A DNA stretch of 64,000 nt from Massalongia carnosa (taxonomy: Eukaryota). The first letter of the stretch is position 1. Every line of letters begins with the position of its first letter. Of the stretch, positions 57,927 to 63,349 are shown piece after piece. The notes beneath the pieces were generated by a model. It saw nothing but the letters and a program-made list of their open reading frames with translations, did no database searches and was not told the DNA's origin. The stretch spans positions 3,162,001 through 3,226,000 of the forward strand of contig OZ287067.1 in the NCBI GenBank assembly GCA_965645245.1. Reading direction: 5' to 3'. A program made the translations under genes and the position numbers.

Positions 57927-58768
57927 GGGTTAGCATGAGGCTTCCCCTTGTAGGCATGGATAAAGGGAGATGTGTGCGTGTCCGCGGTCAGAGCGCGTGA
58001 TTAATTTACTCTGAATTCCGGCAGCTTTTTACGGTCTCTTTGGTAAGAGAGAATTAGCACTTCGGCAACTGATTACGAGTCTCTTGAGGGTCAAGAGACA
58101 AATCAGGTGAAAACGGCAGCTCGATACGTGTCTTTAGCGGAAGACAAACAAGCCAAACCGGCGACGATGAGAGGTCGCCAAATCAAAATATTCACTCGGC
58201 CATCCAGCGACACAGTTGAACCTACCAACCGCCTCGTCGCTATTCAAACTCGATACAGTTCCCAAAAGACTGCCTTTTCGACTTCAATTATCGATCGGTT
58301 TTAATGAAGGCCTCCAGACGATTTCTTTTCTAACACATCGACTACTAGCTATTTAGCTACTACTATCGATGTCCTTCGTCCAAAACAGTCTCAACCTCAG
58401 TGATCCATTCGCACAAAAACCCACCCACCACCCAATTTATTCGAACTTTATCTCGACCTTCGGTCTTATATTAATTTCAGACCTTTATTCCTTTTTTAGA
58501 GATTACGACCTCCGCCTACACGACATCCTCAGGCAAAATCCCTAACTATCACCATTCTATCTTTCGGATATCGTTTCACCGAATGCCGTGGGGGAGATAG
58601 GGGATATATGAAGGGGGTACCGCAGGGTGCCCGGGACTACTGATATGAGAGAGCAGATAGGCTGCCATCATAGCGGGAGGACTCCGTACAAGGAATAGGA
58701 AACACCCATCGGGTGTAGGAAGAGACCGACTTGAGAAGCAGACAGCTGCTATCATGGAGGGGATAAGG

Positions 58769-58993
58769 GAGTATAACCCGAATGGGGGAGCAGATGCCCT
58801 GCTACCATGAAGGGAGTACAACCCGAATGGGGGAGCAGATGTCCTGCCACCATGAAGGGAGTATAACCCGAATGGGGAAGCAGATGCCCTGCCATCATGA
58901 GGGGAATACAACTCGAATGGGGGAGCAGATATCCTGCCACCATGAAGGAAGTATAACCCAAATGGGGGAGCAGCTGTGCTGTCACCTAAAGGG
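58769..58993. repeat. Tandem array, ~5 diverged copies of a 45-bp unit
   Basis: Unit GAGTATAACCCGAATGGGGGAGCAGATGCCCTGCTACCATGAAGG at 58769, 58814, 58859, 58904 and 58949, with decayed flanking copies. Confidence 0.9.
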
Positions 58994-59256
58994 ATGGGAT
59001 GGAAGGTGCAAAGAGAGGACAACTCGCATGAGGGAGCACATCGCTTGCGATTGCCATCATGGAGGGAAGTGCAGGAAGAACAACCAACTTCATTAGCACC
59101 TGTTCTGTTGGCACGAGGGGGTTTTTTTATTTTTATCTTTCTTTTACATGAGAGAGTGATATTGTCTTCGATCTGTTGCTGTATTTTCATACTGTCTTCA
59201 CCACGGCTACACCGATAAGGGAATTGATCGGAAAGGGGAGTGTTAAATTATCCTCC

Positions 59257-60602
59257 CACGCGGGTGAAAAAAAAAAGGGCAAGGTGAGCCGAAACTCCCC
59301 CACCAAAACTTACCCCTTTTCTTCCCCTTTTTCTTCCTCATCTTCTTCCTCATTCAACATTTCAAATGCCATCCCACTATGATACACCTCAAAAGGCCAA
59401 GGTGCAGGGAGCTTATGAGTTTCTTCTTGCAAAAGGCATTTCCATCGATCCTCGAGAGATTTTTCAGCATTTTGGCATTCGAAGCGAGAGACAGGGCTAT
59501 AAGATCATTCGAAACGGAGCATCTTCTAGAAGAAGACATCATTCAACGCTCGTTGAGACACGCGGTCGCAAATCAAAAGTCACGGAAGCACAAATACAGG
59601 AGGCAGATCACATTCTACAAGATGAGGGGCTACAGTTGGAAGGAAAACGATACACATGGGAACAATTGGCTATGGAGATTGGGGCCGACGTTGTCGGTCG
59701 TACAATGCACAATGTTATGTCGGCTGCTCTAAACTATGAGAAATGTCTGGCCTGCGTCAAGGGATGGCTGGCCGACCCACCTATGGAAAGACGGGTCGAA
59801 TTTGCTCACATGATGCTGACCAGATATCCCAAACCGGAGCAATGGGATCGCGTACGGTTTAGTGATGAGATTCATTTTGGATATGGGCCGGATGGACAGT
59901 TACGAATCATTCGTCAGCCCGGAACACGATATCGTTGGGATTGCATACAGCATCGTGACCCGCCTCCTGAGAAAGATCGAAAACGAAAACATTGCTGGGC
60001 TGCAATTGGCTATAATTTCAAGTCGGATATTATCTTTTATGACGTGCCGGGGAACAGCAATGGTAAAATGACTCATCAGGTGTATATTGAATCTGTTCTT
60101 GACCCCGTCGTCAAGCCCTGGCTGGAGCGCGGGGATGACTTCGTACTTGAAGAAGATGGAGACTCTGGTCATGGCACGGGCAAGACAAGAAATGCCGTCA
60201 AGAAATGGAAGGAAGATCATCATTGAGAGCATTATTTCAATTGTGCCTCATCACCTGATTTTTCCCCTATAGAAAATTGCTGGCAGCCAGCGAAGCAGCA
60301 TGTTCGAAAGTATCCTCATTAGGACGATGTCAGCTTGAAGCAGCTGATTAGGGATGGATGGGAACGGGTGACGCAGGAATTCATCAATGAAAGAGTTCGA
60401 TCAATGCCCAAACGATTGGAAGAGGTAATTAGGGCTGAGGGGACGATGACTGGCTATTGAATAGAATGTATGTAGAATTTCAATGGTCATACGAATTGAA
60501 ATGTTGAATGGGGAAGAAGATGGGGAAGAAAAAAGGGAAGAAAAGGGTAAGTTTTGGTGGGGGAATTTCGGCTCACCTTGCCCTTTTTTTTTCACCCGGG
60601 TG
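59257..60602 (+). mobile_element. Tc1/IS630-like DNA transposon, 1346 bp, with atypical ends
   Basis: ~108-bp TIRs (59257-59365, 60496-60602) starting CAC(G/C)CGGGTGAAAA. CCTCC on both flanks (59252-59256, 60603-60607). Encodes a DDE_3-type transposase. Confidence 0.92.
59366..60460 (+). pseudogene. Tc1-like DDE transposase (364 codons) with two nonsense codons
   Basis: [35 protein letters not shown] and SMPKRL in one frame. Stops at 60224-60226 (TGA) and 60320-60322 (TAG). Confidence 0.9.
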
Positions 60603-60757
60603 CCTCCAACCCCCTTTATAGGTGTAGCGCAGCCCTGCCAGCCTTGGCGCGCTAGGCAGTATATAATAGTCATGGACAGATCTCAATAGAACACACCTTC
60701 ATGCAGTCTTCTCTCCTCCCTACCTGAGAGTCTCCTTTTAACTACTGCTTTAATAAA

Positions 60758-63349
60758 GGGAACGGATAACAGGACACCACTTTGGTTAGATAAACACCAC
60801 CTCCGGTTAGGTAAACACCGCTAGCCCAGGTAGGGTAGATTCCTCGGCCCCACCCGCCTTCTTCCTCTTTTAGGTCTAGCAGTCCACATCCCAACATTGA
60901 CACCTCAAGAAAAAATTCAATTCAGCTTTCAACCATCGATTACTAGACATTGGATTTGTCGATTGGCACTGTCTTCATGAATCGCACCCTTTATTTGAAG
61001 CTTAGTAATGCAAATCAGTTGATTGGAGCCGCATTCGCTGCATCCCCGCCAATTCCATCTGCTGCATCCCCGCCAATCCCGTCTCCCCTTCCTCGACCAG
61101 CTCTGCCTCGACTAGCCCTAGCCCTAGCTCGGCCAGTCCTTGTGTTTGTCTCAGCTCTTTCACCAATCCCCCCTCCCCCTCCTCTCCCTCCCCCTCGTCC
61201 TCGCCCTCGCCCTCGCCCCCGACGTCCTACCCTGCCTGGTGTAGTATTGGCTCGATGAATAGCTCGTTCCACCGGAGCTATTGCATCAGCTGTTTCCATT
61301 TCAACCCGTTCGAATTGAGATGGTAATCGATGAGTGGAATTGTCAAATGCCTCCGCTCGTCTGTTTTCCGCTCCCTGAGGGCGACCACGAGGTCGGGCTA
61401 TCTCCGGTTCCCTCACTAGAAGAAGAGGATTAATCAAAGCAATCGGAGGGGCGCGCTTTTCCAACCTTGAACTGTTGTTAGTAGCTGATCGCTGACCATC
61501 GATCAGATGACAATAACCTACTTCCAATGCGGGTGCACATCTTCCAATTTCAGACTTCCTTCATTCTCGAATAATCGTTGCTGAATCAGATGACTACAAG
61601 GCAAGCCGGTGATGGTAGTGAAGACGTTGGTACAAGCTGGAATAACAGTCGGTCTTCCTGTTAATAACTCGTATTGGTGTAGAATCTTTTTCAGGGCATA
61701 GGGACTGATAAATGCTCTCAGTTGCTGAAAGATAACTTTGCGAAGATGAAGTGGAAAACGTGTTCTGGCTTCTTCAAAAGCAATCAGATGATCATGATAC
61801 TGATTTGTTAGTAGCAGATTAATGCCGTCAACTACCAGCTTCAAATCTCCGGTCGATGATCCTAATTGACGTTTTAATACTGCATGTGCGCCTTTCCCTC
61901 GCGACGTTACCGTTGTCTCAAAATGCAGCACCTTGTTGGTGTAGCATGCCACGAAGCGATCGCGATGATTATCAATGTAGGTGGACTTCAAATATCGAAT
62001 ACAATCTTCATGAGAAGTCATATAGGTAGCAGAAAACTGCTCCCATAGCTTCCAAAATTGAGGCTCGGTTGCTGCATAGATCACTGATTTCCAATCTGAC
62101 AAAAAGATCTTCCATTCCTCATTGTCGAAAGATTTTTTGCACTTTGTCAACACATTCTGATTGATGTGCCAGATGCATAGCAAATGATTGATATTTGGAA
62201 AGACTATGGAAGATGCCAACATTAATCCTTTCTCCATGTCGGACACGAGAATAATCGAATCAGGAAGTTCCAATCGAGAATACACCTCCTTCAATTGCTA
62301 TAAAGCCCAGATGTAGTCCTCTGCTGTCTCCGTGATCAGAAAGCAAAAGGCGACATAAAAGGTAGTATGTAGCGCGGTTTGTCCGCTGATGACGAGAAGA
62401 GGCATTTTGTATCGATTGGTCTTGTACGTGCAATCCATAATGAGAACTTCATGATTATCTATCAGAAGAGTTTGGGAACTGCCCTTGATGAAGAAGAGAT
62501 GCGTAATCTGCTGATGAATGTCTTGTTGAAAGTTGTACACCCAATCCTTTTCGTCAAACTCACGAATCAATGCCTGAATAGGAGTCAATGGTCCCAAGAC
62601 ATCACGTCTCATCTGCGCCTTTAAGTTGTAGATGTCCCGAGGTTTAAACATCGGATTCACAATGATCTCGGCATTGGGATCATGAGGACTGAGATCTGCA
62701 TTCACATCGGGAACACGCAGACTAGACAAAACCTTTGACGCCGACGTTTGTACTGTTAACTGTCTGGTAACGTCATCCTTTACACCGGTCAGAGCGATTT
62801 TTCTCAAGGCAGGATGAGAGCCAGCAAGACTGGACGGATGACTGTGTGTCCCATTTACCACCTCCAAAACCACACCTCGTCGTCCATTTTGGCTGTCAGG
62901 GCAAATGGACAAGCAATTAGTCGACTGCTGGTGTGCCGACGATCCTGACCCTGCGGTTCTCTGACTTTTCCACCTCGGTCGCATTTTAACCAAGCTTTAT
63001 TTCTCACTCCCAGCTTGGTTTTCTTGGTTCGAAGAAGCACCACGGCGTAGCCTTCGGGGGCGGCATGCTCATTGACTCTAAGCAACAGGTCTTCTAGTGA
63101 GGCAAAGGATTGACTATCTTCGGGAGGTCGAAGCGGCATGACGACGTGGCGGCGGCAGGGTGCCTGCAGATCAAATGTGAAATATGAGTGCAAGGATGAG
63201 GTGCAGGTAGAATGTGGGAGTTGCAACCGCTAGACCTAAAAGTGGAAGAGGCGGGCGGGCCGAGGAATCTACCCTACCTGGGCTAGCGGTGTTTACCTAA
63301 CCGGAGGTGGTGTTTATCTAACCAAAGTGGTGTCCTGTTATCCGTTCCC
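60758..63349 (-). mobile_element. Mutator-like (MULE) DNA transposon, 2592 bp, defective
   Basis: ~120-bp TIRs starting GGGAACGGATAACAGGACACC (60758-60880, 63229-63349). Flanks TTAATAAA / TAAATAAA (8-bp TSD with one mismatch). Confidence 0.93.
61015..63139 (-). pseudogene. MULE transposase (FAR1-like DNA-binding + MULE DDE + SWIM-like Cys/His), disrupted
   Basis: GYAVV..RTK, CDRGG, CPF, MDCTYKTNRYKMPL, VSDMEKGL, LCIWHI, ETTVTSR and GLPCSH. Frameshift near 62870, TAG at 62298-62300, and a 50-nt intron at 61472-61521. Confidence 0.9.

Follow-up and report, generated by a model that had tools for sequence, protein, structure and literature searches.

Textbooks and annotation software define the IS630/Tc1/mariner superfamily in part by the duplication of a TA dinucleotide on insertion. 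The TA rule is nevertheless broken by some elements in or near the superfamily, such as Tc4 and Tc5 of C. elegans (TNA), TBE1 of Oxytricha (3 bp) and Zator (3 bp). To our knowledge, no member combines a 5-bp duplication with a Tc1-type transposase of the DDE_3 family. Termini that start with CAC and are flanked by 5-bp duplications are typical of Transib-like elements.

According to passages of PMC7325037, Tc1/mariner elements insert into TA with a stagger of 2 bp, and the impala element of Fusarium oxysporum is listed there as DD37E. REPCLASS likewise takes TA as the conserved duplication of Tc1/mariner elements (excerpt of PMC2817418). For the mimps, which are miniature derivatives of impala, an extract of PMC3599309 gives the end consensus, written from the outside inward, as CAGTGGGNNGCAA[TA]AA, and reports that TA follows 150 of 158 ends. 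In the excerpted part of a survey of fungal transposons (PMC5751038), Transib is described as missing from fungi.

Here we analyse an element located in a window of 64,000 nucleotides from contig OZ287067.1 of the Massalongia carnosa assembly (GCA_965645245.1). It is very probably a cut-and-paste transposon of the IS630/Tc1/mariner superfamily, from an ascomycete clade near impala, that duplicates 5 bp and not TA.

Materials and Methods

Part of the window was found in six public sequencing runs, which derive from a lichen metagenome and three organisms, and four of the six were compared with it over positions 58700-61200. Relatives of the element were collected with a profile of 43 homologues of the window protein, which led to 80 metagenome loci with 41-58% protein identity. 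Loci that represent the same insertion were merged and the ends were anchored on the conserved terminal motif, resulting in 45 distinct insertions including the window copy. Thirty-six of the 80 loci were left unused: 11 duplicate other loci, five were dropped without flank (L013, L042, L055, L073, L080) and 20 were dropped since their inverted repeats could not be paired convincingly or one end coincided with a contig edge (L001, L010, L021, L024, L027, L038, L040, L047, L048, L050, L051, L053, L054, L057-L060, L063, L064, L069). When the ends of L021, L024, L054, L058 and L069 were read by eye, no TA-flanked alternative ends were found.

Seven of the 29 insertions with a perfect repeat (see below) needed end placement beyond the automated symmetric end-shift test. 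The ends of L003, L017, L029, L044, L045 and L052, and likewise those of L079, among the 29, were set by eye on the terminal motif, and L049 and L068 were added from a regular expression for this motif. The target motif was computed from the 29 reconstructed sites of the perfect-repeat insertions.

Results

Boundaries of the Element and Its Empty Site

The features of the element are listed in Table 1. The initial annotation of this DNA had placed CCTCC outside both ends, with no TA at either junction, and had let the terminal inverted repeat run up to the start codon; these readings are borne out, TA being missing at both junctions and the left arm of the inverted ends, which measure about 109 nt, stopping directly before the ATG at 59366. 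Other copies in the public runs are represented by contigs whose first letter corresponds exactly to 59257 or whose last corresponds exactly to 60602. The terminal 10-mer had also been described as a perfect palindrome, which is correct for the right end; the left end and the ends of most relatives read CACGCGGG... and are not palindromic, and the palindrome is incidental, the product of one mismatch relative to the left end.

Sub-repeats of 12 nt are present in both inverted ends, with three to four copies each. They resemble the repeated transposase-binding sites at the ends of some Tc1-type elements and are possibly binding repeats for the transposase. Searches of the window with end motifs, with 120 homologues (protein versus DNA) and with pairs of terminal motifs found neither a second copy nor miniature derivatives of the element.

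Table 1. Coordinates of the element and its parts in the window.
Feature	Position	Strand	Remarks
Whole element	59257..60602	+	1,346 bp; inactivated Tc1/impala-like cut-and-paste transposon
Left CCTCC, target-site duplication	59252..59256	.	Single CCTCC in empty-site contigs
Right CCTCC, target-site duplication	60603..60607	.	Window letters and empty-site contigs
Left terminal inverted repeat	59257..59365	+	Begins with the 10-mer CACGCGGGTG; reaches the ATG; 94% identity to the right arm
Right terminal inverted repeat	60496..60602	-	Ends with the 10-mer CACCCGGGTG; holds mirrored 12-nt sub-repeats
12-nt sub-repeats within the left inverted repeat	59309..59354	+	3.8 copies
Mirrored 12-nt sub-repeats in the right inverted repeat	60507-60544		
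Transposase pseudogene	59366..60460	+	364 codons; in-frame TGA 60224-60226 and TAG 60320-60322

An empty site of the form TTAT, one CCTCC, AACC had been predicted for this insertion and was found in contigs of three runs. Two contigs of run X3 join position 59251 directly to 60603 and thereby skip 1,351 letters, which corresponds to the 1,346 letters of the element plus five that fit on either side of the joint. One contig of run X4 reads from the left flank through one CCTCC and AA and resumes at 60611, and in four contigs of run X1 the left flank directly adjoins 60603; additional bridged contigs are present in X1, X3 and X4. These joined contigs represent the empty site with a single CCTCC, that is, the sequence before insertion. 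They differ from the flanks of the window copy by a few percent, and because these flanks are repetitive as well, the empty sites may be paralogous rather than orthologous to the window locus. In either case they still represent the pre-insertion sequence. For the family of the window copy, the runs contained a single further flank, on the left side of a copy in run X6 and different from that in the window.

The sequence of both flanks (about 58700-59256 on the left, 60603-60727 on the right) is repeated in many of the run contigs, which indicates that the transposon is nested in another repeated sequence. A 45-bp tandem repeat of 5.1 copies (58765-58994) lies just upstream of the element. Downstream, short tandem repeats occupy 61037-61218, and the region 60950-61527 is of low complexity, with overlapping frames on both strands whose translations abound in proline, arginine and glycine.

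Transposase and Decay of the Window Copy

The frame of the transposase pseudogene is the only long reading frame of the window element and, when translated through its stops, matches the Pfam family DDE_3 (E 8e-10). An intact protein of 349 residues (P0001, from a cluster of 30 sequences) is 98% identical to it. Compared with nearly all contigs of the four runs, the window copy differs at 13 listed positions (about 1%), both stop codons being among them. Every contig of the four runs that covers positions 60225 and 60321 has sense codons there, so that the two stops are confined to the window copy. The changes are of mixed types, unlike the C-to-T pattern of fungal repeat-induced point mutation. 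The stretch 59257-60602 is a mutationally inactivated copy; its family may have been active recently.

DDE_3 was detected in 42 of the 43 relatives and the helix-turn-helix family HTH_Tnp_Tc3_2 in 24 of them; the latter had no Pfam detection in the window copy itself. The profile of the relatives matches the catalytic domain of Sleeping Beauty (5cr4, E 1.1e-18) with the motifs SDE, D-x-D-x-x-H and SPDL-PIEN aligned, and in this alignment the relatives have three extra residues between the second D and the E. Counted on its translation, the window copy has 38 residues in this interval, which agrees with the initial annotation, as does its assignment to the Tc1-like transposases. A regular expression could parse 33 of the 43 proteins, and in these the interval is 37 (15 proteins), 38 (14), 40 (2) or 41 (2) residues, i.e., 37 or 38 in 29 of the 33.

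An AlphaFold model of the transposase (mean pLDDT 81) has helical bundles at residues 9-122 and aligns to Mos1 over its full length. The best Foldseek matches were Mos1 transpososomes, at E 1e-9, and the Sleeping Beauty structure 5cr4, with a TM-score by target length of 0.69. Matches in the Protein Atlas were confined to generic DDE_3 or Tc1-like clusters, and the seven pattern matches in prokaryote genomes included no relative. The protein is a genuine Tc1/mariner transposase. The clade shares with IS630/Tc1/mariner elements a DDE_3 domain with the D, D, E triad, here with 37-38 residues separating its second D from the E, an N-terminal helix-turn-helix and a single gene between inverted repeats, but its insertions lack the duplicated TA target.

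Five-Base-Pair Duplications in Related Insertions

At E <= 0.001 the window protein has 338 homologues, and the named ones stem from ascomycetes (Bimuria, Clathrospora, Pyrenophora, Botrytis, Rutstroemia, Macroventuria and Orbilia). The ends of most relatives start with CACGCGG..., while variants begin with CTC or CAA. Grouping at 80% nucleotide identity resulted in 31 families, and in all of them no long reading frame other than the Tc1-like gene lies between the ends.

With the ends anchored, a perfect direct repeat of exactly 5 bp flanks 29 of the 45 insertions, compared to 9 of 1,892 when left and right ends were paired wrongly as a control. The next base never prolongs the repeat in any of these 29 cases, and none of the 45 insertions is flanked by TA. 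Twenty-one of the 31 families contain at least one perfect 5-bp repeat. The automated end-shift test had yielded identical 5-mers at 22 of 46 loci, a number that counts one insertion three times, versus 48 of 2,070 mismatched left/right pairs. A search that was blind to the duplication and relied on regular expressions for the terminal motif gave equal 5-mers in 17 of 69 motif pairs.

The repeat varies within single families, with CCATC, CGAGT and CCTCC in one and CCAGC and ACAAG in another. Since copies of the same family carry different repeats, the window's CCTCC represents a target-site duplication and is no part of the element; the same pentamer also flanks one relative, L079. A fungal Tc1-like lineage that duplicates 5 bp and not TA had been proposed on the basis of a single insertion. 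It now rests on perfect repeats at 29 of 45 distinct insertions, and the tabulation of flanks suggested at the time, carried out on the relatives, revealed no TA flanks and no constant CCTCC.

The remaining 16 of the 45 insertions, which have no perfect 5-bp repeat, are assumed to be old, mutated or recombined copies. Ten of the 45 insertions are without any repeat. Four of the five bases match in L018, the repeat is shifted by 1-2 nt at one junction in L012, L031 and L065 and by 7 nt in L014, and L066 has a 6-bp repeat. L066 is related to L031 and L065, in which an extra CA (L031:915-935) and GT (L065:1948-1966), respectively, stand between the flanking repeat and the left end. In L014 (2340-2375) the 5-mer after the right end is present a second time, 7 nt before the left end, and the seven letters in between look like the final four letters of an element end with three letters of target; the arrangement may be an excision footprint or the trace of a second event.

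Target-Site Preference

In the 29 reconstructed target sites, A is found two bases before the duplication (position -1) in 22. Within the duplication, the first two positions are C in 23 and 22 sites and the third is A or T (W3) in 25, whereas the mirrored GG occurs in 12 and 11 sites only. Behind the duplication, its second following base is T (T7) and the third A (A8), in 18 sites each. Positions further out in the flanks of these 29 sites have no bias. The two halves agree when mirrored about the centre and form a loose 11-bp palindrome, TA-N-CCWGG-N-TA. The motif is asymmetric with respect to the direction of the transposase gene, the half adjoining the left end of the element being better conserved (C1 versus G5, p = 0.003). 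A palindromic target would fit a two-fold symmetric transposase assembly that joins the ends 5 bp apart.

Discussion

We are highly confident of the sequence observations reported here. In the mechanism that we propose for them, the transposase would bind the inverted ends of about 109 nt and excise the element, and both 3' ends of the element would be joined to target phosphates staggered by 5 bp, preferably within the loose palindrome TA-N-CCWGG-N-TA and one base inside each TA. Repair of the gaps would then leave a 5-bp duplication, CCTCC in the window, in place of the canonical TA, and the 5-bp stagger would be a trait of the whole clade. The 5-bp stagger itself is read from the duplications, and strand transfer would proceed in a two-fold symmetric transposase assembly.

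One might object that this is an ordinary TA-duplicating Tc1/mariner element in which the CCTCC pair is a chance match or the ends have been misplaced. The flanks of the window element are C-rich, and a single 5-mer match, with a chance of about 1 in 1,000, could have been obtained after several registers were tried; moreover, an outer inverted repeat of 16 nt (59206-59221 / 60613-60628) could suggest other ends. Pairs of that size are, however, common (38 in 1.9 kb), and we reject the outer pair both as element ends and as a sign of nesting, as the empty-site contigs are joined exactly at CCTCC. Together with the one CCTCC that these contigs retain and the same geometry in 29 of 45 relatives, compared to 0.5% in controls and with TA at none, this makes such an error extremely unlikely. 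A similar weighing applies to the idea that the five base pairs are element sequence, or a product of recombination or repair rather than of staggered integration. It could draw on the return of CCTCC at L079 and on the sequence bias of the target sites, but it would have to explain why the repeats differ between copies of one family, why the empty site retains one of them, and why their length is 5 bp, no more and no less, in each of the 29 perfect cases, with the next base never extending them; we consider it practically impossible.

It is also conceivable that a transposase of another superfamily, similar to Transib/RAG, mobilises these ends in trans and that the Tc1-like gene is a passenger, as CAC termini and 5-bp duplications recall Transib. 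The initial annotation had pointed out these two features as Transib/RAG hallmarks, and both are indeed present, but the protein is of the DDE_3 type like Sleeping Beauty and Mos1. A search for a RAG1-like domain in the window copy and the 43 relatives returned only DDE_3 and helix-turn-helix families, and the Tc1-like gene is the sole long frame between the ends in all 31 families. Besides, the ends resemble the impala/mimp consensus given in the extract of PMC3599309, as compared with L003, and Transib is reported absent from fungi in the excerpted survey (PMC5751038). Mobilisation in trans is therefore very unlikely, and we keep to duplication of 5 bp by the Tc1-type transposase that the clade itself encodes.

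Whether an ascomycete-wide clade of true Tc1-type elements has moved from a 2-bp stagger at TA to a 5-bp stagger on an 11-bp palindrome is, in our judgement, evenly balanced; in such a shift, the contact that reads A/T may have been kept and relocated to one base outside each cut. If this is correct, the clade amounts to a natural experiment from which the determinants of the stagger in this fold could be learned. We found no Tc1-type lineage with 5-bp duplications in a search of openly available full texts and are moderately confident that the trait is undescribed, although a curated catalogue such as Repbase or Dfam may have an entry for it. Should the trait prove undescribed, the clade would be the first in the IS630/Tc1/mariner superfamily that duplicates 5 bp. 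A widespread fungal clade of this kind implies that the spacing of strand-transfer sites can evolve within this compact fold, and for structural studies of the superfamily it would stand as a contrast to the strand-transfer complex of Mos1. On the practical side, pipelines that demand TA will misclassify or mis-delimit such elements in fungal genomes, and the clade might yield transposon tools with a different spectrum of integration sites.

Comparison with Known Systems

Among the exceptions to the TA rule, Tc4/Tc5, TBE1 and Zator have 3-bp duplications and belong to other branches than the present clade. Transib and RAG share with it the 5-bp duplications and the ends starting with CAC, but their transposase is unrelated, with no RAG1-core domain in the present proteins; the resemblance is superficial and due to convergence.

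Sleeping Beauty, Tc1 and Tc3 (DD34E) as well as Mos1 resemble the clade in catalytic motifs and fold, in the paired helix-turn-helix and in the inverted ends around one gene. The spacing in Sleeping Beauty, Tc1 and Tc3 is 34 residues, compared to 37-38 in the clade, and the ends of the window element are long in comparison with this group and contain 12-nt sub-repeats. These elements use TA with a 2-bp stagger, as passages of PMC7325037 describe it, whereas the present clade duplicates 5 bp.

With impala of Fusarium oxysporum, the classic Tc1-like element among fungi, the clade shares an element size of about 1.3 kb and a single Tc1-type DDE gene coding for about 350 residues. The DD37E given for impala in PMC7325037, as far as excerpted, is close to the 37-38 residues found here. 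Differences lie at the junctions and the outermost bases: impala and the mimps need TA according to the extract of PMC3599309, while the insertions of the clade have 5-bp duplications and in none of 45 cases TA. The impala end of that extract, CAGTGGGNNGCAA[TA]AA followed by TA, does not occur here, the ends starting with CACGC, CTC or CAA, and terminal positions 3-5 are CGC in the clade versus GTG in impala and the mimps (PMC3599309, same extract). Beyond position 5 the ends of the clade are similar to the mimp consensus as it stands in the extract (PMC3599309), and the relative L003 agrees with it at 11 of 14 specified positions, counted by hand. Judged by the DD37E label and the end consensus, as the excerpted sources give them, impala appears to be the closest named element.
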